From Cyanidioschyzon merolae (Eukaryota): a stretch of 64,000 nt of DNA. The position numbers and the translations under genes are program-made. The notes under the pieces are model-generated. The model had not been told where the DNA came from. It saw only the letters and a list, made by a program, of their open reading frames with translations, and did no database searches. The stretch lies in the NCBI GenBank assembly GCA_000091205.1, contig AP006492.2; one strand, 5' to 3'. Shown here piece by piece: positions 2,679 through 52,030 of the stretch. Every line of letters starts with the position of its first letter. Within the stretch, counting starts at the first letter, position 1.

Positions 2679-4901
2679 TCGAGCAAGACTTCTACGTACG
2701 CAGACCAACGTTAATGCCGGGATGGATTGAATCTTTTGCCGAACAGGGCCATCATTGGAAAGCCGCATTCGAGAGGATGGCCTCAACAATATCGGGCACC
2801 TAAAGGGCGCACGTCAGATTACAAAAGTCTTGGAAATTTTGGGAGTGCTCCACTTCCGTCCATCAGTCCGGATCTGCGTCTGCTTCCAGATGCAAAAGAT
2901 ACCACGAACGCACGGACGTTGTTGTCAGCACCCAGTATCCAACACAAATTCGGAAGGTCGGCTCCATCGTCGATTTCGATGTCTTTTTTGCAGCGCTGCT
3001 GGAGAAACTCCTTTGAATTCGCTTGCCAGTACGGCAGCGGATTCGCGATCTGGTGGCATTGAGGAATCAACAAGGGCGCTGGGCACTATCCGCCCGAGAG
3101 CGCGTTTTCCTTGCAAGACGCCTTGCCTCGCCGAACGCACTGTAGCAAGGTGCGCGCGTTAGGCCTCAACGGAAGGAGCATTATGTATCGAGCGCGCCCA
3201 AAATTTGAGAGTCCGCGCCCTTGGGGCACGTCACCTACTCCGGTCTTGTGGAAAGGTCCGCGCATGCGTGGCATTCGCGTTCTACCCTCTTACACTGAGC
3301 ACTATGCGTCGAGGCATTTCAGCGGCATGGATCCGTCACAGTCTAGATGTAAACCCGAAAAGTGCTTCTGTTATCGGTGTACGATCAGGAGGAACTCGAC
3401 TAAAATGTCAGGTATGAGGAGCTGATAGATGCTACCCCGGTTTGCGTTCCTGTCCTTTGAGTGTGGTGGGACGAATGTCGACTGGCAAGGCAGTGATCGG
3501 CGGCGAATCCGTATTTCGGCACAAGGTGCTGCCACAGAAAAGAGGACCCAAAATTTCGCGTTCGTAGAGGGGCATCGTGAACGCAGAGACAGGTGTCATG
3601 GACGCCCACGACAAGTTTACCGCAGTCACATGTGCAGGCGGGCACCCAACCGAAGTTGTTTGCGCAGGTGCAAAAGATGGCGTTTTTCCACCGGGCTCGC
3701 AAAATCGTCAAGCGCTCGTGTCGCGACAGCGAATCAGCGTTCTGCATGATACGTCCAGTATGTAACGAACGCCCTATCTGTCACGTCGTATTTTTGGTCA
3801 CTTGATTGTCCAGCATACTTCTAGAAGCGCGTTGCTGACTTTCCGAGGATATCGCACAGCATAGCTCCTCTCCTGTCCGGCGTATGAGAAGCAGACGGGG
3901 GCTCTTGTACAAGAGTCGGCGCTCCTACTGTTCGCCATGGAGGCCCCGAGTCGAACTTCTGTTCAATATATAGTCTAGATAGAGAGGCTGGCAATACCCA
4001 GCGCCCAGAGCTCTGATTCTTCGTGCCTCATGAGATCGATGGGCGTAGGCAATACCGATTAACGAGCAAAAAGCTGTGGCAGCGAGCGAACGTGATTCCT
4101 TGTAAAGTCTAGTCAATACAATCGTGTCGCGCCGACTAGCAACGACCACATATCGCAATGTCAGTGCTGGTGCAGCGTCGCATCGACAGTCGGACGCACT
4201 GGCATAACGCGCTGAACGTCAGACATGCAAAGGTAGGGCAGGAGACCAGGAAACAGCGCGGTGTCCATTTGATTCAGTTTCGTCCCAACAATCACGAAGC
4301 AACGAATGAGTACCGAAAAGGTTTCGTGCATACAAAGCGAAGAATGCATCCACGCGCAACATTCGCCAGAGCAGATAGAGTGCATTCCCGTATTGAGGCA
4401 ACCATATATAAGACGGATCTTCCTTCAGTGCATACATTTGGAGCCCAAGTCGTGAGCCCTTGTTACGATGCCCTGCGTTTGCACGCGCATCATCGAGGCA
4501 AGTGTGCCGCCAAACGAATACTTCGCAAAGCGACAACGCTGCGTGACGCCTCGCCCGTGCGCACTGCACCTCAGCGGGCGACGCTCCCCGTAATGCACCA
4601 GCGATCATATTGGGAACGTGAGTTTCCTTAATCCTGCTGCGGCACAGTGCGAGGTCGCAGCGACAAGAAACCTCGGCAGCATGCTCCCGAAATCACCAGC
4701 AGGTTCGCAGGTCCTATCTGTTTCACCCGCTAAACGAACATCTCGAGTCCTCTGCCAGAATGAGGACATCCATGCACAATTCTAGTGAGCGTATCCGCGA
4801 GAGGCCGCCAAATAGCCATAGCACGTGCTTAGCGGCGGCGGAGTCCCGGAGGTAACGCACTCGCTATCGCTGTGCGCGCAGCCTCAATCAGGTCTGTCAC
4901 A

Positions 4902-5510
4902 CTATGATCCGCAGTTTGGATCGCAGGATGAATGGTTAGCGTGATCCGCAGTTTGGATCGCAGGATGAATGGTTAGCGTGATCCGCTGTCTAGGCCTCCG
5001 CAGCGGTGCCAGCGCCCAGGGCGGCATCACTTCCGCCGTGCCTGTAATCGTCAGTGAAACTATCGGTACCCCAGCTTGCTTTGCGACCCGAAACGGGCGC
5101 TGTTTGAAAGCACGGAGCATCCCGTCTTTCGAGCGCGTGCCCTCCGGAAAAAGCAACAGCGACACCCCGCGTTCCAGTCGCGAAACCATTTCTCGAAAGA
5201 CCCGCAGTTGATCCCGTCGACTATCCCGCTCAATCCCGATTTGACGAGCCATGCCCACCGCCCAGCCGATACTAGGGATCGCAAAAATGCTTCTTTTGGA
5301 GACAAACTTGAAAAACCGGCCTAGAAACGACACCGTGTAGATGTCCAGGTACGAATTGTGATTGCACACATAAAGCACAGTGGCATCAGGCGGAAGCAGA
5401 TTCTCCGTACCAACGGCACGCTGATGAATACCAGTGCTCAGCATGGACAGTCGCATGCAGAGCATCGCGATCCAGTCGTAAGCGCGCGCTCGGTATGGAT
5501 CACGGATCAT
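4902..5510 (-). CDS. 1-acyl-sn-glycerol-3-phosphate acyltransferase (PlsC/LPAAT family), apparently lacking the N-terminal membrane anchor
   Basis: The acyltransferase motif I is present as VCNHNSYLD (NHxxxxD) and motif III as FPEGTRS. The segment GTENLLPPDATVLYV upstream of the motif is typical of PlsC. The ORF starts exactly at the truncated end of Fanzor-like copy A. Its last roughly 25 codons are encoded by a 37-bp tandem duplication. Confidence 0.7.
   Translation of the reverse strand: MIRDPYRARAYDWIAMLCMRLSMLSTGIHQRAVGTENLLPPDATVLYVCNHNSYLDIYTVSFLGRFFKFVSKRSIFAIPSIGWAVGMARQIGIERDSRRDQLRVFREMVSRLERGVSLLLFPEGTRSKDGMLRAFKQRPFRVAKQAGVPIVSLTITGTAEVMPPWALAPLRRPRQRITLTIHPAIQTADHANHSSCDPNCGS
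4907..4990. repeat. Tandem duplication of a 37-bp unit 'atccgcagtttggatcgcaggatgaatggttagcgtg' (2 copies plus a partial third)
   Basis: The direct repeat is visible in the sequence. Its period is not a multiple of 3, and it forms the 3' end of the LPAAT ORF. Confidence 0.8.
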
Positions 5511-7469
5511 TCCATACGTTTCTTGCCGTTGGGAGTTGTACTCACTAATGCAAGGAGTCCATGAACTTTCGCCCTCCTTTCCATTTGCTCCTCCGTCAGC
5601 GGTCCGTACTGTGCTATATCCTCAGGACTCCGTTGGCATTTTTCCATCTCCACTCTCTGAAGTGTGCAACCAAGTTCATGGTGTGTATACGACGCTCGGA
5701 ACTCATCTACAGGTATTGTAACGAAACGCCGTGCGCACTCCCTGCATGTTCTTGTCGTTGGAGCTGGCGTAGTTCCTTTTTGGGTCTTCCAGCGCCCTGC
5801 CCCAAAAGCTACTACGAGCCTTAGACTCTCGTCCTCCTCCAAGGCGCTCAAGTGATTGGAAAAGATCGCGAATGCACGCTGCTTCCCACAGTACAAATTC
5901 ATTCGCAAACGAGCTCACCGAGGCTCGGTATACTCCTCCCACAGCGCATCCCAATGAGCAACGCGAACTTCCATGAATTCCCGAAAAGCTTCAAAGTCCG
6001 CGCCCTGGCTCGTCACCTCGCTCATAGCTTCCAGGTGATCCCTCATTCCTGCATTCCACGTCTCGATATTTTTCCTCGCATTCGTTATACGGGATTCTCG
6101 ATAGTATCTCGCTCTCGAGAACCTCAAAAGAAGCATATATTTCTGACGTATGTTGCCGTCGGTGCAATCTTCCGCACGCTTGGGTACAGCGATGGATATG
6201 ATATTCTTGTTCCAGGGGTTAAGGCCGACGACAAAGTCGTTCTCGTGGGGATTATACATCCAGTGGCCCGCCTTCTTGTTTCCGTGCTTCGGCAAGTGCG
6301 ATAACGTACACGGGATAGGACGAACTGCCTGCAACCGCTGATAGTCTACACATATGTATACCCCATCGTTGTCGATTGTCCCCGTGAATACCTTTTTTTC
6401 GCCGGTCTGGGACGCTTGAAATCGAAGATATTCTGCCAGTAGGAGTCCCGGTCTTCGCCGATGATTTCTTTGTTGCTCACACCGAGCGCTGGACTGATCT
6501 CCTTCATGAAGACGGAGAGGACTCTAGAGTCAATAGTAACAAAATGTGACTTGGACTCGCGTAAGCGAACGACAATGAAGCGCATCTGGAGAAGCGATTG
6601 AATGTCATCTCTCCAACGCTTCATTTTTTCCGTACTCAGCTCCATTTCGGCCTTGCGTTCGAGTTCTCGGTCCAAAAACATGAAGTAGGAGAGAATAAGG
6701 GGATAACATCTCTCTTCGTTTTTTCTCATATCTGACAATTTTTCTCTTGGGTTGACAAGCCCCAAGACCGAACGATGCTTTTGATGAGTCGCGCGAATTA
6801 CAGAAGCCCTATTTTTTCTAGAGCGTGATTTCCCCTTGTCGATGAATTCGATCTGCTGTTCATGCTGGCGATCGTCCTTCACACCGTCGATGACTGCCCA
6901 CATCCCTTCACGAAACAGGCCCGGGTACAGCGCAAAGACGGCGCGTGTCATGAAAAATTTGGGTATACGATCTTATTGTTCCTCACATTCGTGAGGAACC
7001 TCATTGCCCTGTATTCGTAGGTATCTGCGTCACCCCTGTATCGCGCACCGTAGAAGCGGGAGCTTGCGTAATTTTTCGGAGAGCATGGACTGTCTCATTT
7101 CTCCTCGATGTTTCGCAGGTGCCAAACATCAACTGGCTGACAAAGGTCATGTTGAAAACTTCTCCCGGAAACATCACTGTTTCGATGTGCATTGCGTTGC
7201 GGTATATCTCCCTCCGCAAATGCATCAGTCCCGAAAAAAGCGTTACAAACATAGCTTGAGCACGAATCGCCATCGTTTCTGAAGGCCTGTCGCAACGTTT
7301 CCTTGTATGGATCCTTAATATGCCCAAGAAGACAGAATTTCATCACCATTTCATCGATCAGTCGTCTTTCTTGCAACCTTTGACGAAGGGCCTCCCGTTT
7401 TTGCTTCTTCGCGTTAGCCTGTTCCTCTGCACTCGGCACTGTCCTTTGTTCTCTTCCGGCGGCCGGCAA
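5507..7469 (-). pseudogene. Decayed TnpB/Fanzor-like nuclease gene (copy A)
   Basis: Homology to copy B is spread over at least three reading frames. The frameshift positions differ from those in copy B, which argues for decay rather than introns. The C-terminal region carrying the RuvC-III motif and zinc-finger region is missing. Confidence 0.5.
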
Positions 7470-7644
7470 TACCGGTCATCCAGAACCCCATACCTCCAGT
7501 TGCATAAGTTTCGGTTTTTATATAAAACACTAGGGACGCTTCTGCTTTAAACGACGACAAATCAGTTAAATACTTTACCTTGAAGGTTGAAACACGATTG
7601 AAGTAAAACCTACACTTTGCTATCATTTGATCGCAAATACAACT
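5507..7644 (-). mobile_element. Fanzor/TnpB-like (OMEGA-family RuvC nuclease) element, copy A; 3'-truncated and frameshifted
   Basis: The fragmented ORFs 7095..7469, 7001..7327, 6346..6951, 5915..6334 and 5507..5908 are collinear and 55-75% identical in amino acids to the copy-B ORFs at 38399..40674. A RuvC-I-like motif FVVGLNPWNKNIISIAVP matches copy B's [18 protein letters not shown]. The upstream end shares 'ggttgaaacacg..gcaaatacaact' with copy B, with the boundary at about 7644. Homology stops abruptly at 5507, after KKRME, where copy B continues into the RuvC-III motif. The element is roughly 48% GC against roughly 60-65% in flanking genes. Confidence 0.55.
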
Positions 7645-7859
7645 GGCCCCGACACAGCTGTAGGCCAAAAAGTGGCCATTATCGCGTTTCTCTTCGCCGG
7701 CGAGACAGGTTGCGTGTTGTGACGGCCAGATATCGTGGTGCGCGTACGGGCCATATAATACAAAAAAAGAACGGAGTGTGGCCAATTACTTGCAACGAGG
7801 TAACGGTTCCTTTTCACATCTATTGCAGACCTTGAAAAGAGGAACCTTTTGCTCATGGT

Positions 7860-8340
7860 CTAACGATTACCTTCGAGGTGGAAGGTCCCACACACCGGAA
7901 GACGCTACCTGCTTTTGCTCCGCGTGACTCTGAGTGGTGGAGAATGTGACGCACCTGAGCGTCTCGTCCGAATCGCGTTTGGTTCTGGGACTAGGAGCGG
8001 ATGTGCTGCCTATGGGCGTCACCTTGGTCGCGGTGGACTCCTAGGATACCGCTTCGCGGTACCGCAGGCTGAAGGTCTGCATGTACAGCTTGGAGGCTCC
8101 CAGAAATGTAAATAGCCCTGATTCCGTTTCGCGTGAACCAAGCCTCTTCCGACGCCCTCAGTGGTATTGCGAAGCCGTTCTGTCACCGTGGTGCATTAGC
8201 ACCAGCGGTGTAGGTGCTATTCCGGGTGCTCAAGGAAGGTTAGGTGCACCGTTGAACGTGCGAAACAAGCAGTTCATTCGAGAGAAAGTAGGGGTGATGG
8301 AACGTGGAGAAAGAGTGCAGCATGAGGACGCATTCCCGAA
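7860..8340 (+). repeat. Interspersed repeat R1 (SINE-like), copy a
   Basis: The head 'ctaacgattaccttcgaggtggaaggtccc' and core 'ccgacgccctcagtggtattgcgaagccgttctgtc' match the other R1 copies. R1d, for example, reads 'ccgacgccctctgtggtatagaaaagccgtcctacgtc'. It lies about 215 bp beyond the upstream end of Fanzor-like copy A. Confidence 0.6.
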
Positions 8341-9217
8341 AGCCAATATCGATCAGGCAATCTGGGATATATGGTCAGTGGAGACGTTCTGTCGAACCAA
8401 AGAAAGCATAGCGCCGGAGGGAATTCCCTAATGGCTCTGGTGTTCGACGCATCGCCTTGGCAGATGCATATGCGCTGAAATCATCCCGCAGGAGGAAATT
8501 CCCTTATACTTCCGCTGGGCCGGTGCCCGCGGGCGGCAAACGTAGCACTTGCGCGTTTCCACTGCATGATTGACACGCAGTTACCGCCGTGGAGAGGCAC
8601 ACGTTAAGCTCGTTTGGAGCAACTGACCAGCTGCAGTCATATATACGTATCTCATCAACGGAGCGTCTTCAGAGACGTGAGCAAAGACGCGCAGGTCGTT
8701 TTGCGCTAAGCTTTAGAGGCTCGTGCGCGGTCTAAGATAGACGTCGACGCGCCGGTGTTGAGGAGAACGAAAACAGCGCCCTTGTGTGTGTAGTTGTCTG
8801 TCGAAAGACGAACAACTTCACTCCAGTAGAGCGTAAACGGGCGCCCCGGAGTCACGGATTTTGAAACTTGAGAAAACACTGGTGCGAAAGCACTCGTCTT
8901 TTCCACGGACTACACGCGTCACGGCGAGAGCGGGGCTCGTTGCTCATCAGTCGCGGCCGGGACGATTCTGAACCACGGAGACGTGAGTGCTACAGCCCAG
9001 TACACTGGATCAAGCGTTGAATGCACGTGCTCCTGGGGATATTGATAACGGCGCTTCTGATCGCCGCTGCGTTCTGGGTCGCATTGTCGATGGTGCGTCT
9101 GGAACGGCGCCTTGCGGAGCACGAGCAGCAGGCAACACAACGTTTATTGGAACCGCGTAAACCTGGTGAGCGCAGCGTGCGCGCGGAAACGAGCACTGCG
9201 CTCTCGTAGCAATACAT

Positions 9218-15046: not shown

Positions 15047-17329
15047 CTGCAGTCAAAAGCACGTCCAGCTCGGTGCGGTGAAATCTGTCGCTCCGGGACA
15101 AGTGTTGCGCTAGATTGGCCCGCTTGTGAGCGAAACGGCCAGTCGTCAATCGCGCAGATTGTCCACTATGGGTGTCAATGGGCAGTTACGTGGCGCGGTG
15201 CTGTCGAAGCCGAGACGCGATTATCTGGCGGTGCCAAACATAGCTCCTATGTCCGTTAGGATCATATAGTTCCATAAATGCACTTTCCGCGATGCGCTTG
15301 GATCATGGACGTGCCTCCGGGGCGGGGGCGTATCGCGCGTTCGCGCTGGTGCCCCTCGAGCGCTGGTTCCGTTCTGCGGTACGCAGCGAGGCATCTGAAC
15401 GCGAGTCCGATCGATGCGGAACTCGGACACGTTCGCTCTGTTCCCGCGACTTGGTTTGTTCTCCGAAAATTTTCTAGATGCATAGTCCTGAAATTTGATG
15501 CGCAGCGAAAATCTATTATGGACTCATATGCAGTTCTCAGATGCTCGAACGTATTTTCGGATTAGGTTCTGTTGACGTTCTGCGACTGCTGGCAAGCGAT
15601 GCGTGACCGGAATCGAGATGATTCGCGGCGCACTCGAGCAAGGATTCATGAAATAGCTAATATTGCTGTGCAATGCATACGTTTTGGCGTTTACCTCTCT
15701 CCCTTTCTTACGTTTAACATGCGCACTTCGCACATTCATCGACGTTTGGATCTTTCTCTTTCAAGGCCAGTCGCGGGCGCAACGAAGCGCGGCCATGGAT
15801 TGACGCAGACAGCTACTGAAAATCGTCTGTAAACGACTTGCTCTCCAGCTCATCAAGAGAATTTGCAGAATGTGTCATGTCCAATAGCAATCTCCATTCG
15901 AAACACATACCTTCATTTGGTACAGGTTATCTGCAACACCGCATTTGGCAGCTGCATGATGGCTCTCACGAGATACGCTTCAAGAGGTTCGCGTCGCTTT
16001 TCTTTGTATGCAAAGGAGTGCTGCGCTCGAAATTTGGACATCGCAACGATGCTCTTCGGTAAACAGACCGTCACCGATATGTTGGAATGAAGTACCGACA
16101 GACTGAAATTTTATGGTTTGTTCCCTAGGCTGTTTGTTCCTTCCAGCACTTGTTTCATCCTGGAGAACATTGTGTTTTACGAATCCTCTATTGAATGAAA
16201 CAGCAAGCAGTCGCTTGTGCAAGTCGCAGAGACAACGCAGATACCTGCTGCATGCGCGGAAACATTGCAAGGCATTGCATGGCGCCACGTGCACCAGTCA
16301 AAGGCACGTATCGACCGATCATAGGAGCGTTCACGAGCCACCGGGTGCTGGTCAGATGAGCGGAGGGTTTCGCGGAAATGCGGGAACACCCGCACACAGT
16401 CAAGCCACCGCTGCGAAGACGCACCGATGCAGTATACAAAGATAGAGAGAATGACAAACGAAGCATAGATAGGGGCGGGTGACTCTGCATGAAATGCGTT
16501 GACCACAAGCGGAAGCAGCTCAGTGGGGACGTTAACGCTGCCATCAAGATTCCGCCAATGCTGATAGCGGAACTGGTGGGAATGCAGTTACCAACGTATT
16601 CGAATATGGAGACTCGTATGCGAAAAACAAGGTACAGTGGCAGCGGAACCCTGCAAACACCAGTATTGGTGCTAGAGCGCAGAAACAAAACCTATATTGT
16701 GTACGCCCGACTCTGCGAACCTGCTCTATGTTAACCGAACACGGCAGTATCCAGAATCCCTGAATGCGCTGCTGCGGTATGCAAGCCAATGAAACAGAAA
16801 ATGTCCAACGAGTTTCTAGGGTAAATGAATGACTACCCGCTGACGCCTTCCAGCCTTTTTCGACCGGCCGCCTGCTGTCAGCTTCAGTTTATCCAGGTAT
16901 ACACTGAGCTCGAGAGGCCGACCGAAAAACCTGCATCGCGTCAGTTTCAGAGGTCTCGTCTTCAGCACCGCACATCATCTGATACTGATTGCACCTTTCA
17001 AAGTCTCGGTTCATGAGCTCCTTGCGTTTTTACTGCCGCCGGCAGAATTCACCAGCGCAAGGACTCGTCGAACTCGTGCCCTCGGTGCCATTTCCCGCCC
17101 TGCCAGCTCTCTGTGCTTTTCTGTCGCCAAAACGGTCCGCTGGCTTCTCTCCATCTCGAACTTCAAAAGTGTACACCCTGGTTCATTCCTTATTCATGAA
17201 AATGAATGCACCCCTTTAAGCACTCGGGTGAGGAATTTCGCAGCAGGAGAGGCACTCGCGGAAGACAGACAAAATGTGCCCTGGCGTCACCGTGTCTTGA
17301 ACGCCTCGGCGATTCGTACAATGGACCGA

Positions 17330-22372: not shown

Positions 22373-23740
22373 TTATTGCGCATCGTACGCACCCATCTGT
22401 GTGTACTTTTGTACAACCAAATGATAGAGATTCTCCGCACGTGCCTGGCGCTTCTCCGACTTGCTTAGTGCCGGACTGATGCCTGCGTCGAGGTCGACTT
22501 GTGGCATTAGACTCATCCAGAGTCGTGCATAACTGACGACGCGCTGTTCGCCTTTCTCTTTTTCTACTTGATCTGGCGGCGGTAACATGTTGAAGGTGCC
22601 GATTGCCATCGGGTAGTAGTGACACGGACGACCTGCCTTCTCAGCCGATAGCCGGAAAAGCTCTATTGCGTCTGGATCAAAAGATGCACAGGTGACGCGT
22701 CCCGTTTCGGGGGAGCGTCGATCACGCCCCCCGCTGGGCGCAAACCAGACGCAGCGGCCTCCGTCGGCGAAGAGACGTTCCATTTCCCGCAGGGTCTTAC
22801 GATTGTGAGCCTGCTTCTCCGAACGCCGATCCGGCTCGTCTAAGATATGTTTTTTCGAGTACACCGTCAGCATGGAGCGACCGACGCTAAACGGCGCTGC
22901 TAGTGGATCGTCACGCACCCGATCACCGGCCATATACAGAATGCTCTCCGCGAGTGCTGCCCCAGATTCGCCGAAATGATGGCGAAACATATGGTAGATG
23001 GCAAAAGGATCGGCTTCGCTTTGATGATTCCCCACCAGGCATACGTTATCACCAGCTGCGAGCTGCGCTCGGATGCATGCGAACGACGCCTCCGAGGACG
23101 GATCCAGGTAGGAGCGTTGCAGATCACAAAGCGGTCGCGAAAATCTGTTTCCAAATGCGGTATAGTTGAACTCAGGTCCGCTCACAGCTTGATGATACGG
23201 CTTGAAATGGAAGGGGTGCTTCAGCTCATAGATAAGAATATCGAAAAGTGTTGAAAAGTTATCCGAGCACCAGCGTAAGACCTGCTTTGGGTCGGTTGAC
23301 GGACACCCGAACAGCACTAGCGCCCCGTCCGCAGCCGCGGCTAGCGCAGCTTTCTCGTACGATTCATACCAGCCGCGTAAAACTGAGCACGCTCTGGTGC
23401 TCAGAAGCGAACGTTGTCGGAAGAGCTCGAGACGCTCGAGAAACGTCAACTTGGGGTTCGCGTCCGAGAACAGCTTTCGGTCACAACAGGTAGGCGTCGG
23501 ACAAAGCAGCTCGATTGGAAAGCGAAAGCTTTCATTTTCCGCGGTCTGGGCAAAAAGTGTGCGCGCCCCGGGGGCATTCGATTCCGCAGCGAGCGCGACC
23601 CAGCGAGGCAGCGCACGCTTGCGTCTCTGTAACTGCCAGTGAAGTCGTTGCCGCGTTAACAACAAGGATAATTGACGCTTCGTTCGTTGTCTAGAACCTC
23701 TCAAACCGAAAGAAATACAAGACACCCACATGGAATGCAC
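22373..23740 (-). CDS. ATS1: Soluble plastid-type glycerol-3-phosphate acyltransferase (ATS1/GPAT family)
   Basis: LVGNHQSEADPFAI matches the ATS1-specific NHQSEADP acyltransferase box. AGDRV..DPL..PFSVGRSMLTVYSKKH, WFAPSGGRDR and LPPPDQVE are all collinear with plant and algal ATS1. Confidence 0.85.
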   Translation of the reverse strand: MHSMWVSCISFGLRGSRQRTKRQLSLLLTRQRLHWQLQRRKRALPRWVALAAESNAPGARTLFAQTAENESFRFPIELLCPTPTCCDRKLFSDANPKLTFLERLELFRQRSLLSTRACSVLRGWYESYEKAALAAAADGALVLFGCPSTDPKQVLRWCSDNFSTLFDILIYELKHPFHFKPYHQAVSGPEFNYTAFGNRFSRPLCDLQRSYLDPSSEASFACIRAQLAAGDNVCLVGNHQSEADPFAIYHMFRHHFGESGAALAESILYMAGDRVRDDPLAAPFSVGRSMLTVYSKKHILDEPDRRSEKQAHNRKTLREMERLFADGGRCVWFAPSGGRDRRSPETGRVTCASFDPDAIELFRLSAEKAGRPCHYYPMAIGTFNMLPPPDQVEKEKGEQRVVSYARLWMSLMPQVDLDAGISPALSKSEKRQARAENLYHLVVQKYTQMGAYDAQ

Positions 23741-32133: not shown

Positions 32134-35100
32134 GTCCAGCACGCTGTGCACAGTGCTCGAGAGCCTGCACACAACCAACGACATTCGTCGCTGGTTTGAT
32201 GGACTCCGAGCATTTCAAAGCAGCAAGAGTGTCGTGCGGCAGCTCTAAGGGTCATCATGGCGTCGATTGCGCGCATGAAGGGTACGGAAGTTCGATTGTC
32301 GAGGCCGGAACGCTAGCCTGGTGGCGGATGACACGGATCACGACGCAGCGCATCGTCGGCTTGAGACCGCCCGGAACGGCAGTTCCTCAGTCTGGGTACA
32401 CCTGCATCATCAACACGCTTCGTTGACGCTGGAGAAGAGACTGATGGCGATTGTTGGTAACGTTGTGCGGTGGATGTGGCGCTCGCCCTACAGTTTAAAG
32501 TTTTCGGGATTGCATTTTTTGTGCTTAAGGTTGTTTTTAGAAATCGCATCACTTTAGGACTCGAATACGCAACAGTGGGCCGGTACGCTAGATTTTGCGA
32601 GCTAGAACTTTGGACACGAGCGCGTCGTAGGGACCCCGTATGGTCGTAAAGGTATGGCGTGCACCCCGTACGGAAACGGAAACGAGACACCGCGCGGTGT
32701 GTTGTTATCACGATTGTCAGGTTCTATCATACGTTGTACATAAAGGTCAAATCATGGGACGTCATGGTCGTTCGCCATGTACCGAAAGGAACTGGTCTTA
32801 GCGTACATGACCTGCGCTGCAGCCTCGCTGGATTGCTGAACCGCATCACGCCGGGGCATCGCTCCAGACAAGAATCCAATGTAATGAGGCGTACCCACTG
32901 GTTTCATGATCCCAAGTGAGCAGCGTTTCAGCACAATGCCCTCACTGAATACGAAATGAATCCCTCAAGGGCTCGCCTGAAAGCAAGAAGCTGGACGCTC
33001 GGGAAGCTCGAACGATTTTCCGGAATTTTGATCGAGCATACGGCGTCTCGATATAGAAGGTGCTTCCGCGCATCGCTGCTGCTAGAATGATACCCAAGTT
33101 AGCCGCGCATCCGCGATTGCCTCGGCATCTGCTCTTCGATCAGCGTACCGTGCGCCATCTCGTGCGTCCGCCTCTGTTCCACGTTCGTCTGTTCTATCTG
33201 TTCCAGCGTGCACCTACGCTAGTGATTTGTTGATTTCGTCCGGATCGCATCGATGAGAATCGAGAACGATGGCGTCCTGGAAGCGTTGTACACTTACGTC
33301 AGTGGAGCATGCGTACAGCGTTTGAGCGCTGCAGCATGCCGAGCGCAATGGATACCCACAACTCAATGCGACATAGCGGCCATTTCCTCATCCAACTCTT
33401 TGAACAAGTTGCCGAATGCAAGTTTTTCGTCAAAGTACAAGTGAAACAATTGGCGGCCCAACACGTTTTCATATATTCCTGCGAAAAATCGTCGACGTGC
33501 GCCGTTTCAACGCCCATTTACGCGCTTGATCAAGCGTACGAAACATCCACCTCTGCTCTATACGGTGCTGAGGACGTCGATATCAAAATCCTGGCGTCGT
33601 CACGCGCCATGCTGATATGCTTCCTGGCATTCAGTGTGCCCGTCCCTCGATAAATTCGGAACCGCGCATACGTTGAGCAGGTTCATCTGCTTTCCAATCA
33701 AGTTTCTGGCGTTGTGCTCTTGGTTTCGAGGCACGACGATCTCCTTGGTGACCGTCGCTCCAGGAAACACGCTCATCACAAAGTGCTTCTCTTCATTGAC
33801 ATAATTCCGTTGAAATTGTGTCCCGTTGCTCCACGCAGGCCTGAGCTTCACTGCGTGCATATAGATCGGTGTTCCGTCGCTCTCCATCGTACTCATATAT
33901 TACGCTTCACGTACTCCTCGTAAACATGAAACATTGAACGAGCTCCGCCGGTGCACTCTGCCATGGTGTTTGAATGCTTCATACTTGCTCGCAGAAACGA
34001 TCTCCTTATCCGCTTCCACCATTGCGTGGGCGGATGGCATGCATGTGATCTTCATTCTCTAAATCCACTTTTTCCATGGTTTCAGACATAATCGGGGACG
34101 ATGGCGCTCGAGCTCGCCTCTTCGATATATGGGTCGAGTATTCCGCAGGTACTTTGCGTCACCTTCTCTGGAGCGGGCACGCCTATGGGCCGCAGCGCGA
34201 CTTTCCGCCCCGCCCTGCGTACGAGCAGGAGTTCCTTAGCTCGCTTCAGGGCTAGCACAGCGAAAGAATGGTTCGTAAACGAACATTGCCACGGATGCGA
34301 ACGACTCGTCTATTGATCTGTGAGCATCAAATTGGTGTTGGATAACAGAAAAGACGCCTTCGACTGGACTGAATCAGAAACAATAGACTGCACCGGAGTG
34401 CAGCGCAAAGTCGAACTATGCTGTGAAATATTGCACGGTTTTTGGGCGATAAAAAGTGACCTCGACATAGCGCATGACAGACGAGCATCGGACGGCGACG
34501 GCACGAAGCATGCATCGACAAAACGTCATATGATGAACGATCTTTTCTGTTGGACGCTTCATAGGCAAGCGCGCGACTGAGTCGGCTACGAGGCCCATGA
34601 TTTCGAAATGCTTGCTCGTCGCTTCTTCATGATGAGCAGATTTTCCCGCTTTGAGTACCCCGAGAAAGGTCTACGATTTCTCCCGAATGAAGTTTCATTG
34701 AGCAAGACGAACACCTGCCGCTCCTGTAATACGCGTTCACGTTTCAGTGCGAAATCAATCGGTTGTTGTTCGATGCACGACGCTCTCGAGCAGAAGCAAG
34801 CCTTATCGCGTTGTCCATCGGTTTCTTTTCTTCACCTTTCATAGCACCGGTAGAGACGCATCATATCGCGTGGCTCGTTTCGACTTCATTTCATCATAGA
34901 TTGTATGAAAAAGAAAGGATTGGCGAAGAGACATTCGCGCGGCAAGCGTTTGATAATTTCTGATTCAGTTGCACAACGTTCAGGGTATTGACTACCAGAA
35001 CGGTGGTTCATCCATCTGGTTCATGTGAAATAACTGACTTAAGCAATAAATCCCGTTTTTCGCGAGAGACCAGTGACACCATCGATTCCTTCCTCAACCA

Positions 35101-35444
35101 TTCCCCAATCTACAGGATACGTTTCTTCTGTTGAATTCCTGTAAGAAAAACAAACAAAAGCGGAAAAGCGTGCACTGATAAGAGCATTATGCAAGTCACT
35201 ACGCTTCCCCTAACGCTAGGCTCCGAACACGACCGCGACGGTGTATTCGCCTCGGTGGTCTTCGCTCTGACCCCAATCCATGGAAGCGAGCCGAATGCAT
35301 GTACATCGAGACGCAGCGCGTTCACGTGGTCAGCATATCCAGAGAAGCAAACCTGATGTGCGTAGACAGCTGAGGAGGCGTCGCTGCATCGGCTGCTGGG
35401 GCGCAGATTTTGCCCATTGTTGCAGCGCGGACAAGTGTTCCGAA

Positions 35445-36028
35445 TTCTCGAAAATTTACCTTCTAGGTGGAAGGTCTCGCGAGCCGGACGAGCCTGCCGG
35501 GCATACGCCCTGTGCGCCTCTGCAGCGACCGATGCTGTAGGGAGATCTCCGCTGCCCCTCGGCAACGTAATCAATCTGGGGCTCGCAGCGAGTATGCTGC
35601 GTTTCCGCGTCGCGCAGGTCGCAGAGGACTCCGAGCATATCGCTTCGCGCTATCGCAGGCAATACGTCTGTATGCGCATCTTGCAGGCTCCCTGAATGAC
35701 AATGAATCCCGAATCCATATCGTGCAGAACACGCCTCGAGCCGACGCCCTCTGTGGTATAGAAAAGCCGTCCTACGTCCGTGATGCATCCGTACCAAAGG
35801 TAAAGACGCCACTGCGGACTATCAGGGCAGGCATTAGGTGTCCGATAGAACGTAGGAAACGACCAGAATATCCGAGAAAAAGTATAGGTAATGTAACATG
35901 GAAGTAGGGCGTTTGAAGGATACTTCACCTCGCACTAAAAAAACACAAAAAAAAAGTAAGAAAAGAAAAATGCGCGTGATCGGAGAACGCTGGCACAAGT
36001 ACACCTTTTGTCCATGAAAAAAAAATCG
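35445..36028 (+). repeat. R1 repeat, copy d (most complete copy, with an A-rich tail)
   Basis: Head 'ttctcgaaaatttaccttctaggtggaaggtctcgcgagccggacgag'. Core 'cctcgagccgacgccctctgtggtatagaaaagccgtcctacgtccgtgatgcatccgtaccaaagg'. Tail 'gaccagaatatccgagaaaaagtataggtaatgtaac...aaaaaaacacaaaaaaaaagtaagaaaagaaaaatgcgc...gtccatgaaaaaaaaatcgg'. It ends 408 bp upstream of the bZIP ATG. Confidence 0.6.
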
Positions 36029-38151: not shown

Positions 38152-40825
38152 TCCATTGAGGTCCCTACGCTTTACTTAGAGCTTTTCGTTCGCTTTTAAG
38201 CCGAGACGGCAGGTTGCGCAACGTCATCGAGTTGTAGACGCGCACGAATAGCGAGTGCTTATTTCTCGACACGATGAAACTGGATTCGGAAAATAGATTC
38301 ATGAACTAAAGAGTGAACTGATTCCCGATGGAGGCCGAACGCCGTTCGAAAGTCGAACGACGGCAGTGCACCGTAGTGGCGAGAAGGCCGCCCTAGACTT
38401 AACGACTCCAACTGGCGTACTGACGCTTCCTAGGCTTTCTGGACCGGCCACCCACTACTGATTCCAACTTCTTCTCATATAAATCAACTTTGAGAGGTTG
38501 TCCAATAAAGTTCTCTCGTGTCCGCTCTGGAGGTCTTTTCTCCAGCACCGCGCATCTCCTGATATTGATAGCGGCGTTGAAGTCTCGGTTAACGAACTCC
38601 ATACGCTTCTTGCCATCATTGGTTGTACATACTAATGCAATGAGTCCACGAACTTTTGCCTTCCGTTCCATTTGCTCTCCCGTCAGCGGTCCGTACTTTG
38701 CAATTTCCTCAGGACTCCTCTGGCACTTTTCCATCTCCAGGCTCTGGAGTGTGCACCCCAGTTCATGATGTGTATAAAATGTTCGAAACTCATGGATCGG
38801 TATTGTGACAAAACGCCGTGCACACTCCTTGTACGTTCTTGTCGTCGGAGCTGGCAGAGTTCCTTTTTGGGTGTTCCATCGCCCTGCTCCGTACGCTACT
38901 ACAAGCCTCTGTCTTTCATCCTTCTTCGAGGCGCTCAACTCATTGAAAAAATTCGCGAACGCCCGCTACCTCCCACCATATAGATTCGTACGCAGACGAG
39001 CCCACCGGGGCTCTGTATACTCCTCCCACAGCGCCTCCCAATGGGCAACAAGAACTTCCATGAAATTCCGAAAAGCTGTAAAGTCCGCTCCTCGGCTCGT
39101 CACCTCGCTCATAGCTTCAAGGTGATCCTTCATTCCTGCGTTCCACGTAACGATTTTCTTCCTTGCATTCATTATACCGGATTCTCGGTAGTATCTTGCT
39201 CTGGAGAACCTCCAAAGGCGCATGTCTTTCTGACGTAATTTGCCGTCAGTACCATATTCCGCACGCTTCGGTGCTGTGATGGTTATGATATTCGTGTTCC
39301 CAGGGTCTGCGCCGACGACAAAGTCGTTATCTTGGACTCTCTCCGTCGCAGGACCCGCCTCCTTCTTTTCTTCATGTTTCGCCGCGCCAACGACAAGGTC
39401 GTTATCCCGCACCTCCTGCATTGCAGGACCCGCCTTCTTCTCATCTTCATCCTTCGTGACGGGCGCAGCCAAAGGCGGACCAGCACGATCTTTCTACAAC
39501 CGCCGATAGTGTACACACAAGGCTACTCCATCGGTTTCGATCAACCCAGTGAACCACTTTTGCTCGCTCATTTTGAGACGTTTGAAATTGAAGATATTCT
39601 TCCAGTACGTTTCCCGGTTTTCATCGGAGAACTCCTCCCTGTTACCATTGAACTCCGGACTGATCCCCTTCATGATGCCGTAAAGGACTCTGGAGTCGGT
39701 ACTCACGAAATGTGACTTGATGTTGCACATTGGAACGACGTTGAAGCGCTTCCCCATTGGGACAGCCTTCCGTCTCTCCCACTCTTCATTTTTTTTCCCC
39801 ACTCAGCTTCATCTCTGCTTTGCGCTCGAGTTCTCGGTCCATGAACACGAAATACCGTACGACGAGGCGATCGTATCTTTCCTTATCTTTTTTCATGTCT
39901 GATATCTTGTCTGTTGGATTCGCCAACCCAGTACCGCACGATGCTCTTGAATAGCCGCACGGATTACAGAAGCTTCATTCGTGCTCTCGTTTGACGCCTT
40001 CTCGTCGACAAATTCGACCTCATCTTCACGCTTGCGATCTTTCACGATGTCGTTGATAATCGCCCATTTCCCATGGCGAGAGATGCCCTGGTACAGCGCA
40101 AACACGGCGCGTATCATGAAACGTTCGGGGTTCACTGTCAAATGGTTCTTCAGATTCGTGAAGTACTTCATTGCCCCGTCTGTGTAAATATCCCCGTCAC
40201 CCTTGTATCGAGTACCCTCGAGGCTGTAAAAGGGATGTTTTTCGTGGAGAGCATGCACTAGCTCATTTTGCCTCCTCGTTTCCCCTGTACCAAGCATCAG
40301 GTAACGAATAAAGTCTTATCGAAAAACTCGTCCGGAATCTCGACCGTTTCCGTGTGCGTCACGTCTCCGTACATCTCCCTCGCCAAATGAATCAATCCTG
40401 ACGACACCTCGACAACACGCTTGGAGTACGAGTCGACACGTTTTGCTGATACCCTCTCGCAACTTTTCCCTCTAGGGATCCTTGATATGTCCAAGACGAA
40501 AAGGTTTTCACCATAATATCGTCGTGCTGTCGTCTTTCCTGCAGCTTCTGACGTTGGACCTCTCCGTTTTGCCTCTTCGTCTTGTATTGTGGCTCCGGGC
40601 TTGGTACTTTTGTTCGTTTTTTTTCTGGCAGCCGGCGACACCTGTCTTCCAGGATCCTTCATTTCCATGTCCATAGCTTTCCTTTGTTATTTTTTTGAAG
40701 AAGAGCGCACATGAAACGCGTTTGCTGTACACCGCGGGAAAGCACTTGAGTACACGCATTTGAGGGTTGAAACACGGTTGCACTGACAGACTATACGCTG
40801 CTAGGGCTTTAATGCAAATACAACT
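38152..40825 (-). mobile_element. Fanzor/TnpB-like (OMEGA-family RuvC nuclease) element, copy B; the more complete copy
   Basis: The ORF series 40297..40674, 39893..40297, 39494..39802, 38966..39472 and 38399..38938 reconstructs a roughly 700-aa protein. A RuvC-I-like motif reads [18 protein letters not shown]. The C-terminus has a TnpB-like Cys-containing helper region (EFRTFYTHHELGC...EKCQ) and a RuvC-III-like motif FVNRDFNAAINIRRC. Its upstream boundary at about 40825 is defined by homology to copy A ending after 'gcaaatacaact'. The low-GC 3' flank 38152-38398 presumably holds the right end of the element. Confidence 0.6.
38399..40674 (-). pseudogene. TnpB/Fanzor-like RuvC nuclease gene (copy B), interrupted by at least three frameshifts and an internal 20-codon tandem duplication
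   Basis: See the mobile-element entry. The frameshift sites differ from those of copy A. A duplicated peptide [20 protein letters not shown] / [21 protein letters not shown] lies immediately before RuvC-I. Confidence 0.55.
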
Positions 40826-41033
40826 CGTACGTTATAGCAATACGCTCATATTAAGGATCGCGTTTCCCAGTTACGGCAAGATGCGCTTTGCGTCTCATGC
40901 ATGCCAGATATGGAGATGCGCGTCTTGACTGCGCTCTAAAATAAAGAGCGGATAGGAACCTCTAAATACCAACTATATAACAATTTCTGGCCCCGCCTGC
41001 GATAAACGTTGAAAAAGGGAAAAGCTTACGGTA

Positions 41034-41640
41034 TTCTCGAAAGTATACCTTTTAGGTGCAAGGTCCCGCGAGCCGGACGATTCTGCCAGGGTTGTGCCTC
41101 ATGGTCGCCGCAGTGCTTCGTGCTGTAGTAAGATCTGAGCAGTTCGTCCGAAACGCAGTTGATTCTGGTACTCGTAGCGGGTATGCTGCACGTGGGCGTC
41201 GCTCTGGTCGCAGTGGACTCCTCGAATATCGTTTCGCGCTGCCACCGGCACTACGTCCGTCTCTACTGTTTCCACGCTCCCGGAATAATAATGTACTCCA
41301 GACCACGTGTCGGATGCATCATAATTCGATCCGACGCCCTCAGAAGCATGGAAAACCCGCCCTGACTTCGTGCTGCATCTGCCGCAGCGGTCTGACCGCA
41401 GACGCGGGTGCCCCAGACAGGCAAGACCCCCGATAGAACGTAAAAGAACGATCAGTATTTTCGAAAGCAAGTCTGAATGATAGACCTTGGTACACCAGCA
41501 TGACGAACGCTTTGTTTCGATTACCAGTACGCATCCCGCAATCTGGGATCCTTCGTCAATGGAACCGGTTTATCAAGAGTAGAGAAGATCACAAGCAGCG
41601 TGGCCGCCGCCTGCCTGACACAGCGGCTACACGGCCTACA
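41034..41640 (+). repeat. R1 repeat, copy e
   Basis: Head 'ttctcgaaagtataccttttaggtgcaaggtcccgcgagccggacgattctgccaggg'. Core 'ccgacgccctcagaagcatggaaaacccgccctgac'. Its extended 3' part, 'gcatcccgcaatctgggatcc', is shared with copy g ('gcatcccgcagtctaggatcc'). It lies about 210 bp beyond the upstream end of Fanzor-like copy B, separated by a spacer homologous to that of copy A. Confidence 0.55.
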
Positions 41641-51174: not shown

Positions 51175-52030
51175 GTATTCGAGTGTTACGCTTCTGGGGG
51201 CAGGAGGCCCCGCGAACCGGACGAGTCTACCGGGCTTGCGCTCCGTGTGCCTCTGCATTGCCGGGCTCAGGAGCAAGACGCAAGGAACTCGTTCGCCACG
51301 CAGTTCATTCTGGGACTAGGAGCGGTTGGGCTGTCTCTGGGCGTCGACCTGGTCACGGAAGTCTCCAAGCATATCGCTCCACGCTGCCGCAAGCTGAAGA
51401 GCTGGCTGCGCAACTCGCACGCTCCCAGCAGGACGAAGAGGCCGGATTCCTTGTTCAATGAACCACGCCTCGAGCCGACACCCCCAGTGGTGTGGCAAAG
51501 CCGTTCTGACTGGGTGCTCCATTCGCACCGGCGGTACAGACGTTACGGTGGGTGCTCACTGGATGCGCTCAGTCCACGACAGATCGTATCGAGCGACCAG
51601 TCCATCCGAGAGCAAGGATCGGAGATGGAACTTGAAGGTACACTGAAGAATAATGGACGCTTTTCTTAATCTCAATATGCATCCCGCAGTCTAGGATCCA
51701 CGCTCCAAGTAAACGTTCTGGATGAACAAACGCAATCCACAAGGGTCGTCTGCGCCGCTGTGCCGCTCCGGGAACGCGGCAGCGATCCATGCAATCGCCC
51801 AGCTCGCTTGCAACGCATGGCGATCGTCCCGGAGGCGCGGCCGGAGCGGCAGCTCAAGGCAACGAAGGGCGAGGCGAGGCAGCGCGGTGCGGCAGGCGCC
51901 ACCGGCGGCGATCGCATCGATCACATGCACCGCGCACTGAAAAACCCCCCAAAAAGAAAGGCAAAATGCGCATCATCGGAGAACGCTGGCCTGAGTGAAC
52001 GTTTTGTCCATGAAAAAGAAAATCGATCGC
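51175..52030 (+). repeat. R1 repeat, copy g (with a duplicated or extended 3' region)
   Basis: Head 'gtattcgagtgttacgcttctgggggcaggaggccccgcgaaccggacgagtctaccgggc'. Core 'cctcgagccgacacccccagtggtgtggcaaagccgttctgac'. Tail 'gcgcactgaaaaaccccccaaaaagaaaggcaaaatgcgcatcatcggagaacgctggcctgagtgaacgttttgtccatgaaaaagaaaatcgatcgc'. The tail overlaps the first codons of the SAS-6 ORF. Confidence 0.55.

Follow-up and report, generated by a model that had tools for sequence, protein, structure and literature searches.

A decayed Fanzor1 transposon copy abutting the acyltransferase gene CMJ021C (LPAT1) of Cyanidioschyzon merolae and the probable origin of this gene by deletion

Introduction

The CMe-1A element of Cyanidioschyzon merolae is a Fanzor1 transposon of ~3 kb, which is represented in the genome by ~150 copies, each ~80% identical to the consensus, and has neither terminal inverted repeats nor a definable target-site duplication (PMC3627910). 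The 635 bp at its 5′ end are also found on their own, under the name TE-N2_CMe (Bao and Jurka 2013, PMC3627910). Here we describe a decayed copy fitting this description (copy A), which directly abuts CMJ021C, or LPAT1, a gene of lysophosphatidic acid acyltransferase (LPAAT or LPAT). Both lie in a stretch of 64,000 nucleotides, hereafter the window (contig AP006492.2 of assembly GCA_000091205.1), that belongs to chromosome 10 of C. merolae 10D: of seven long open reading frames (ORFs) compared, six are exactly identical to annotated 10D proteins of this chromosome, which include CMJ029C and CMJ030C as well as a bZIP factor and an ABC-A transporter.

In the lipid literature CMJ021C is presented as an enzyme localised in the endoplasmic reticulum (ER), which limits the rate of triacylglycerol synthesis and makes a target for engineering. 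Its product was scored as ER-localised by means of GFP and FLAG fusions, the place being ER or cytosolic (PMC4928187, PMC8152781). FLAG-LPAT1 was stable and co-localised with calnexin, its overexpression raised the content of triacylglycerol 3.3-fold, to 0.2% of dry matter, and increased the transcript 520-fold, which implies a very low basal expression (PMC8152781). The same gene is induced 2- to 133-fold in four overexpressors of transcription factors (PMC8152781), and its protein was undetected in a 2026 proteome study (PMC13306765). The plastid-localised LPAT is a different gene, CMF185C (PMC4928187), so that a gene of the CMJ021C type would be dispensable. These papers treat CMJ021C as an ordinary LPAT of the ER type; truncation, plastid-type origin, an abutting transposon or a 37-bp repeat are not described in the papers examined that mention this gene.

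The best named homologues of the CMJ021C product are the plant plastid LPAATs (ATS2/LPAT1, BAT2) and bacterial PlsC, with which it has the catalytic motifs in common. The 10D protein differs from them in that the transit or extension region, the first membrane helix and the native C-terminus are gone.

Results

The junction between copy A and CMJ021C

The ORF adjoining copy A occupies positions 4902–5510 and codes for 202 amino acids (aa); here and below features of the LPAAT gene and of copies A, B and C lie on the minus strand of the window. Its product is identical to BAM80171.1/XP_005534778.1, annotated as “probable 1-acylglycerol-3-phosphate O-acyltransferase”. The published CMJ021C cloning primers match the window exactly (J021_Fw, ATGATCCGTGATCCATACCGA, corresponds to 5510–5490, and J021_Rv ends on the last codon ahead of the TAG stop), while the pair used for quantitative RT-PCR of CMJ021C lies inside the ORF. 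Thus, CMJ021C/LPAT1 of the lipid literature is this ORF, base for base. We consider it probable, at about 0.85, that a deletion fused a dead CMe-1A Fanzor1 copy to a plastid-type LPAAT gene at its codon 160, and that this is how CMJ021C was made.

According to the alignment of the window with a second copy of the element (copy B) and with two metagenome contigs carrying full-length LPAAT (L011 and L014), the two sequences meet at positions 5507–5510, reading ATGA. The minus strand is here ...GGC AAG AAA CGT ATG GAA TGA TCC GTG ATC CAT ACC..., where A5510, closing the codon GAA, is the last base of the element and everything from T5509 on is LPAAT sequence (cTGATCC, Leu160-Ile161). The full-length gene has at the equivalent place gtgc-TGATCCTTGATCC, that is Leu160-Ile-Leu-Asp-Pro. 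DNA homology of copy A to every other copy ends at 5509–5511, and the joined ends share a microhomology of no more than 1 nt (one T). The ATG of CMJ021C (5510–5508) is, hence, chimeric, with A coming from the Glu codon GAA of the element and TG from the CTG of Leu160, and the TGA that terminates the element frame (5509–5507) and overlaps this ATG is LPAAT sequence read in another frame. Since the frames of the element and of LPAAT differ, no fusion protein is encoded. On this alignment the ATG is not an ancestral start codon and was created, by chance, in the act of joining. The first-pass annotation, made from the letters of the window alone, had already read the end of the element after GKKRME and the overlap of its stop codon with the ATG, and the minus strand does read so. 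Its wording that copy A is truncated exactly at the LPAAT start codon does not hold: the deletion would have joined the interior of the element to codon 160, and the start codon is a product of the junction.

The same junction, at ~99% identity, was found in the contigs L010, L015, L017, L041, L043 and L044, which represent at least six independent metagenome assemblies, so it is real and common to 10D-like strains. An artefact of the reference assembly might be suspected in a repeat-containing region, where contigs from metagenomes frequently stop within the element, but with the same junction recurring in different samples and assemblies this idea is hardly conceivable.

With the N-terminal regions of three orthologs as queries, neither tblastn nor blastn detected the N-terminal coding sequence of LPAAT in the 64-kb window. 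When the segment deleted from 10D was compared with the window, only its element portion found matches (in copy B and in a fragment near 17 kb), and its LPAAT portion found none. This bears on a proposal of the first-pass annotation that an unrecognised intron of the LPAAT gene harbours the element, the N-terminal exon lying further upstream. Such an arrangement would account for the missing N-terminus and for nothing more. It has against it the absence of the required coding sequence from the window, a divergent gene located ~850 bp past the element as the next one upstream, the contiguity of N-terminus and catalytic domain in L011, L014 and L003, and the scarcity of introns in C. merolae, no more than a few dozen. 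We regard it as highly improbable, and the proposal was abandoned.

Full-length relatives of the truncated gene

The 202-aa ORF matches the Pfam family Acyltransferase (PF01553, E=1.6e-24) and TIGR00530 (E=1.8e-24). Two acyltransferase motifs are intact in 10D: NHNSYLD of motif I (NHxxxxD, 5343–5363) and FPEGTRS of motif III (5130–5150), the latter changed to FPKGTRS in L010 and L011. The best homologues of the ORF are a 222-aa metagenome/NCBI protein (79% identity) and CDCA13G3736 of Cyanidium caldarium (339 aa, 62%), and plant chloroplast LPAATs are 42–47% identical to it. All full-length homologues, including those from Cyanidium caldarium and plant chloroplasts, possess an N-terminal extension and a hydrophobic helix right before the point where the 10D ORF starts; the lack of an N-terminal anchor and transit region, noticed in the first pass, is thus confirmed by alignment. 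The ORF starts, with its Met1, at the position taken by Leu160 in a 373-aa form, and a hydrophobic stretch of 33 residues together with the 127 residues before it is gone. The N-terminal helix of longer LPAATs aligns with the N-terminus of PlsC from T. maritima (5kym, matched at E=4e-23), relative to which the 10D ORF begins at about residue 36, being devoid of the first N-terminal helix and about half of the second one. This two-helix motif reportedly anchors the active site of PlsC in the membrane and is needed for activity. Taken together, the domain matches, the alignments and the primers identify CMJ021C as a truncated remnant of a 373-aa LPAAT of the plastid (PlsC/ATS2-like) type.

The contigs L003–L005, from the relative with 79% identity, have the gene order RabGAP – methyltransferase – full-length LPAAT, as in the window, and no element. 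In these contigs the LPAAT reading frame continues upstream uninterrupted, through ...LNLVGIFFLLVTFAWSLPLFLLMLVLYPLVVLFDPYRARVYDW, as far as an ATG ~137 codons further up. Comparison with an element-free related locus, which had been named as a way to examine the junction, therefore gave a full-length gene in the same surroundings.

A scan of metagenome contigs with the 202-aa ORF gave two groups. Contigs of the first one, H1 (L010, L015, L016, L017, L028, L041, L043 and L044), are ~99% identical to the window and carry the junction wherever they span the site; L016 and L028 start downstream of it. In the second group, H2 (L011–L014), identity in the ORF is 94–95%, and homology to the window begins at 5509. 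The H2 gene codes for a 373-aa LPAAT (MYLAL...RTRINLVGVFFLLVTFAWSLPLFIIMLILYPFVLILDPYRARVYDW...), whose N-terminus is contiguous with the catalytic domain, as it is in L003. Upstream of the start of homology L011, L013 and L014 contain ...INLVGVFFLLVTFAWSLPLFIIMLILYPFVLIL and the start codon. A spacer of 92 bp separates the latter from a Fanzor copy whose 3′ end is complete, with NRDFNAAINIRR and a terminal hairpin. Relative to H2, the segment missing from 10D amounts to 836 bp (836–837 in L011, L013 and L014), made up of 266 bp of the element 3′ end, 92 bp of the spacer and 478 bp of coding sequence, a value to be taken as an estimate. The 373-aa forms and the element-free relative thus bear out the earlier suggestion that the element replaced the 5′ end of LPAAT. 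The 90% cluster of BAM80171.1 comprises many 373-aa proteins, and none from NCBI is among the 15 of its 21 named members that are listed, so the intact form is probably unannotated in 10D.

Several observations weigh against this reconstruction. Identity to copy A is only ~80–81% for the Fanzor copy that precedes the H2 gene, when the adjoining LPAAT is ~95% identical. This Fanzor copy is probably not an ortholog of copy A, judging from the disproportion, and the two may be independent insertions or one of them may have been overwritten; the layout of the 10D locus before the deletion is for this reason drawn by analogy. None of the contigs with the 373-aa form extends beyond the upstream element, within which they break off, and on the downstream side they depart from 10D after ~1 kb, running into more Fanzor copies (extra ones surround the gene in L014) and an unrelated gene. 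Allelism of H2 with the chromosome-10 locus is likely rather than certain; contigs sought via the neighbouring methyltransferase were further ones of the truncated type as well as L046 and L048, and the intact haplotype was not reached in this way. Finally, LPAAT of L011 (contig positions 2982–3553) resembles H2 over roughly its first 96 shared codons, then turns to the H1 type. Downstream this contig is 99.4% identical to 10D, yet it has a single unit of the repeat considered below and the ancestral W and K residues, and it could be either a recombinant (mosaic) haplotype or a chimeric contig.

As copy A is probably no ortholog of the element upstream of the 373-aa gene (81% against 95%), a multi-step history has to be weighed, where the copy landed already truncated at its 3′ end or inserted inside the LPAAT coding region, and the 5′ fragment of the gene was lost separately. 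The region is, indeed, rich in elements and prone to rearrangement, as follows from the five pieces per 64 kb, the extra copies in L014 and the odd breaks at position 8591 in L046 and L048. Such a history, however, requires two or more events, when one deletion suffices; blastn and tblastn found no 5′ fragment of LPAAT beyond the far side of the element; and the element lies exactly between the methyltransferase and LPAAT genes, as expected for an intergenic insertion followed by a local deletion. We find it unlikely and prefer fusion by a single deletion, though both the order of events and the number of deletions belong to the reconstruction.

As to L046 (1–2400) and L048 (1–480), they match the window at 99% only rightward of 8591/8592, a break 222 bp outside the element. 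Leftward of it they contain unrelated genes, for a C2/PRT_C protein in one contig and for a cytochrome c of low GC content in the other. They are either chimeric assemblies or real rearrangements.

Structure and relationships of copy A

Copy A, a 3′-truncated transposon of the CMe-1A type, occupies positions 5510–8368. Its homology to copy B and to metagenome copies spans from ~8368/8232 down to 5509–5511, with 80–85% identity to other family copies in the 3′ block. The upper limit of 7644 assigned at first was too low, since the 5′ non-coding module (7473–8368), comparable to TE-N2_CMe, runs to ~8368. This module aligns with 41050–41551 of copy B, with 35444–35789 of copy C, with 51205–51699 (copy D) and with L001; the 5′ modules of the five copies start aligning at (G)GATCCCAGATTGC, which is ~8368 in copy A.

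The degraded Fanzor1 coding region (5510–7472) was delineated by three-frame translation and by tblastn with the metagenome protein P0001 and with P0037, and ends with ...GKKRME just ahead of RuvC-III. Its frame is broken by two in-frame stops and two frameshifts. The stops are a TGA at 5915–5917, in place of the Trp conserved in copy B and relatives (RWARLR), and a TAA at 6973–6975. One frameshift falls at ~6385–6395, within an A7 homopolymer context at 6379–6405 (CGAAAAAAAGG), and the other one in the region 7001–7030; copy B is unbroken in both places. The RuvC-I motif reads GLNPW (6212–6226) instead of GADPG in copy B, so that the catalytic Asp, kept in the family, is replaced by Asn in copy A; the family alignment A2 shows no variation in the D and P of RuvC-I. 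RuvC-II, aligned to the structures 9cf0 and 8gkh, reads VDEFRAS (5690–5710) and keeps its Glu. The last ~266 bp of the element, with RuvC-III, the protein C-terminus and the terminal hairpin, are absent. With Asn in RuvC-I, no RuvC-III, four lesions of the frame and no 3′ end, the product predicted from copy A cannot be an active nuclease. Reading of TGA at 5915 as Trp was considered as well and rejected, since read-through of the stop at 5507–5509 yields no RuvC-III sequence.

Reconstruction of copy B led to 51 relatives, nearly all of them metagenomic. Neither single Fanzor fragments nor full-length members of the family gave matches in Pfam and NCBIfam, and distant members carry PF07282. 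When a profile was built from 11 family members, its only matches in the PDB were two Fanzor1 entries: 9cf0 of Parasitella parasitica (E=3.4e-22) and 8gkh of Spizellomyces punctatus (E=1.7e-17). The motifs DPG of RuvC-I, IDEFRTS of RuvC-II and NRDxNAAxN of RuvC-III align between the profile and both entries, which keep the RuvC-I Asp and RuvC-III, unlike copy A. By these profile matches copy A belongs to the Fanzor1 family, as the first-pass annotation had supposed. Copies A and B, moreover, agree with CMe-1A in the genome they inhabit, in length (~3 kb), in the ~80% identity of copies (80–86% in pairs of independent copies from different loci), in a single Fanzor1 ORF and in a 5′ module that also occurs solo. 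Terminal inverted repeats and target-site duplications, for the lack of which CMe-1A is known, were not noted in A and B, where no search for them was made. Copy A departs from CMe-1A in the loss of its last ~266 bp and in its fusion to a host gene. The assignment of both copies relies on the published description, which they fit, rather than on the Repbase consensus.

Copy B (38338–41551, ~3.2 kb) is full length, though decayed as well, and served for comparison. It continues past GKKRME with FVNRDFNAAINIRR, the RuvC-III motif (38561–38590 in translation, NRDxNAAxNI class), in agreement with the first reading of this copy, and ends in a terminal hairpin (~38340–38364) shared with other copies. 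DNA identity of copies A and B is 82.5% over A 6248–5511 and 66.6% over A 8209–6317. The four protein fragments are 76%, 65%, 38% and ~39–45% identical, the range of 55–75% given initially being too high for the N-terminal half. Copy B has frameshifts at ~40297, ~39893 and ~39800, stops at 38966–38968 and ~39495, and a 78-bp internal duplication. Since the lesions in the two copies differ, they decayed independently, as had been proposed. The duplicated unit of 78 bp (26 aa) lies just ahead of RuvC-I (39309–39461 in copy B); it is single in copy A and repeated four to five times in P0001 (residues ~390–480), forming a variable acidic/lysine-rich linker.

The 3′-terminal hairpin, CGTTCGA-CTT-TCGAACG, is present in four of five independent copies, in some of them with a longer stem. 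In L001 and in the downstream copy of L014 a hairpin built from different sequence occupies the same end of the element. On the contigs such hairpins are located at ~7630–7660 (L001), ~8390–8425 (L002), and ~2470–2508 and ~8165–8205 (L014). Scans of the window for Rfam families and tRNAs gave no matches. The hairpin is a candidate for the last stem of the Fanzor guide (omega) RNA or for a transposon end signal.

In L014 the upstream Fanzor copy (1508–2508) is 99.9% identical to a copy located 5.7 kb downstream (7197–8200). The two are in direct orientation and flank the 373-aa LPAAT, and both read VGKFRTS, the RuvC-II Glu being lost. Such identity suggests a very recent duplication or transposition in the L014 lineage.

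Other Fanzor-related sequences of the window are a third Fanzor1-like element, copy C (32923–35789), which belongs to a more distant subfamily (its protein is ~28% identical to P0001 and P0037) with the conserved 5′ module at 35444–35789; an isolated fragment at 16921–17187 (minus strand), which specifies the ~89 C-terminal residues of a Fanzor1 protein with 40% identity to P0001, the 3′ end of the element being weakly matched by DNA at 16842–17013; and a solo 5′ module without a Fanzor ORF behind it at 51205–51699, which is consistent with TE-N2_CMe. Thus, five Fanzor-related pieces are found within 64 kb. In a genome of about 16.5 Mb this density is far above that predicted by ~150 copies.

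State of the CMJ021C coding sequence

The end of CMJ021C is altered by two tandem units of 37 bp (4907–4980), the second of which shifts the frame and brings in a premature stop at 4902–4904, so that in 10D the ORF ends with ...HANHSSCDPNCGS. The native C-terminal coding sequence (...SVTDLIEAARTAIASALPPGLRRR) persists out of frame at 4832–4906, as found by tblastn and by blastn to L003; the C-terminus of the relative matches 4945–4832 of the window with 74% identity in tblastn. The unit occurs once in the 373-aa versions, twice in 10D and four times in L010 (6530–6680), L016 and L028. Four units (+111 nt) would be in frame, but a rescue of the C-terminus in this way was rejected because of a stop in the third unit, and the premature stop due to the duplication is present in every truncated version. 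The primer J021_Rv lies in the 37-bp unit and has, therefore, two annealing sites in 10D.

Substitutions were counted in 181 shared codons and polarised with the 79% relative as an outgroup. Fixed changes are 7 nonsynonymous to 1 synonymous on the H1 branch, with 3:2 more in 10D alone, and 0:4 on the H2 branch (Fisher p=0.01); the counts are small, and p becomes 0.08 if the truncated lineage is credited with all three synonymous changes that could not be polarised, which also speaks against our interpretation. In total the truncated lineage has 10 nonsynonymous and 3 synonymous changes for ~403:140 sites, that is omega ~1. In terms of these counts the pattern is that of relaxed constraint after truncation, with roughly neutral substitution.

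Neighbouring genes

The methyltransferase gene BAM80172 (9218–10582, plus strand), a divergent upstream neighbour that bounds the locus, starts ~850 bp past the end of the element. Its product is 454 aa as annotated in 10D and 417 aa as called in most environmental contigs, so the start may be misannotated or the N-terminus may be specific for the strain. Another ORF with an acyltransferase domain lies at 22373–23740 on the minus strand and is, from gene order, probably CMJ027C, the plastid glycerol-3-phosphate acyltransferase. The window thus holds two glycerolipid acyltransferase genes less than 18 kb apart.

Discussion

The element family and the gene were both known before; what is new is that LPAT1, as studied so far, is a truncated remnant. 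Its formation may be pictured as follows. Copy A once would have been located just upstream of LPAAT, or in its 5′ part, next to the genes for methyltransferase and RabGAP. One deletion could then have taken the last ~266 bp of the element (RuvC-III, the C-terminus and the right-end hairpin), the short spacer with the upstream region of the gene itself and the first 159 LPAAT codons, those for the extension at the N-terminus and for the hydrophobic membrane helix. The joint by chance would have read ATGA, providing the 202-aa ORF with its start and the element frame with its stop. Later drift presumably brought roughly neutral substitutions, along with the tandem duplication of 37 bp by which the frame of the C-terminus is shifted. 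Since the upstream region of the gene would have gone with the deletion, transcription of the remnant would have to start inside the transposon relic. Localisation in the ER or cytosol, low basal expression and absence from the proteome are consistent with a promoter-less remnant devoid of its targeting region.

The word “relic” refers here to the origin of CMJ021C, and no loss of function is proven by it. The stability of overexpressed FLAG-LPAT1 and the 3.3-fold rise in triacylglycerol (PMC8152781) count against a purely passive remnant, which may still be catalytically active. As to activity of the short protein, the overexpression phenotype would argue for it, and the substitutions, the repeat and the missing helix point to decay. 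From the same origin a different present status might therefore follow: the truncated ORF would be a working new gene, for which the relic gives promoter, 5′ untranslated region and start codon, and a plastid-type LPAAT moved to the ER or cytosol would feed the synthesis of triacylglycerol under stress. The intact NHxxxxD and FPEGTR motifs in 10D agree with that, as do the 2- to 133-fold induction, the stability of FLAG-LPAT1, its co-localisation with calnexin and its effect on triacylglycerol. On the other hand, substitutions look neutral (10:3) and include changes at conserved positions (W15C, I77S, P149S and W169R), the frameshifting repeat varies in copy number by strain with a stop in every version, one strain has FPKGTRS, the first and half of the second helix of the membrane-anchoring motif of PlsC are missing, and the protein escaped detection in the proteome study (PMC13306765). 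A working gene is, in our opinion, possible but doubtful.

Sequences resembling heat-shock elements (pattern GAAnnTTCnnGAA with one mismatch) are relevant in this respect. Nine of the 15 matches in the window are inside Fanzor elements, copies B and C included, although these occupy ~15% of it, being more AT-rich; two matches, at 5558–5570 and 5965–5977, are less than 460 bp upstream of the ATG, which favours a working gene. Their overall number is, however, at the level of chance (15 against 13.5 expected). As an explanation of the HSF1-dependent induction of CMJ021C these motifs may be regarded as a weak lead. One can go further and assume that the relic, by supplying promoter, 5′ untranslated region and one base of the start codon, was co-opted to create a stress-inducible ER or cytosolic LPAT1, and that the 2- to 133-fold induction in overexpressors of HSF1, BRD1 and MYB reflects regulatory sites of CMe-1A. 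We take this as a speculation with rather poor odds; if it is true, other copies of CMe-1A might share the stress response.

With CMJ021C being most probably a remnant left by deletion, several published properties of it are to be reread: its ER or cytosolic localisation, because the targeting region is gone, and its near-zero basal expression and absence from the proteome, because its own upstream region is gone. Its strong induction when transcription factors are overexpressed could be due to transcripts that begin within the element. The full-length natural allele of related strains may be a better enzyme to test. For the Fanzor1 family the locus offers a clean, base-resolved case of involvement in gene truncation in a very compact genome, by a mechanism that is not of a new kind.

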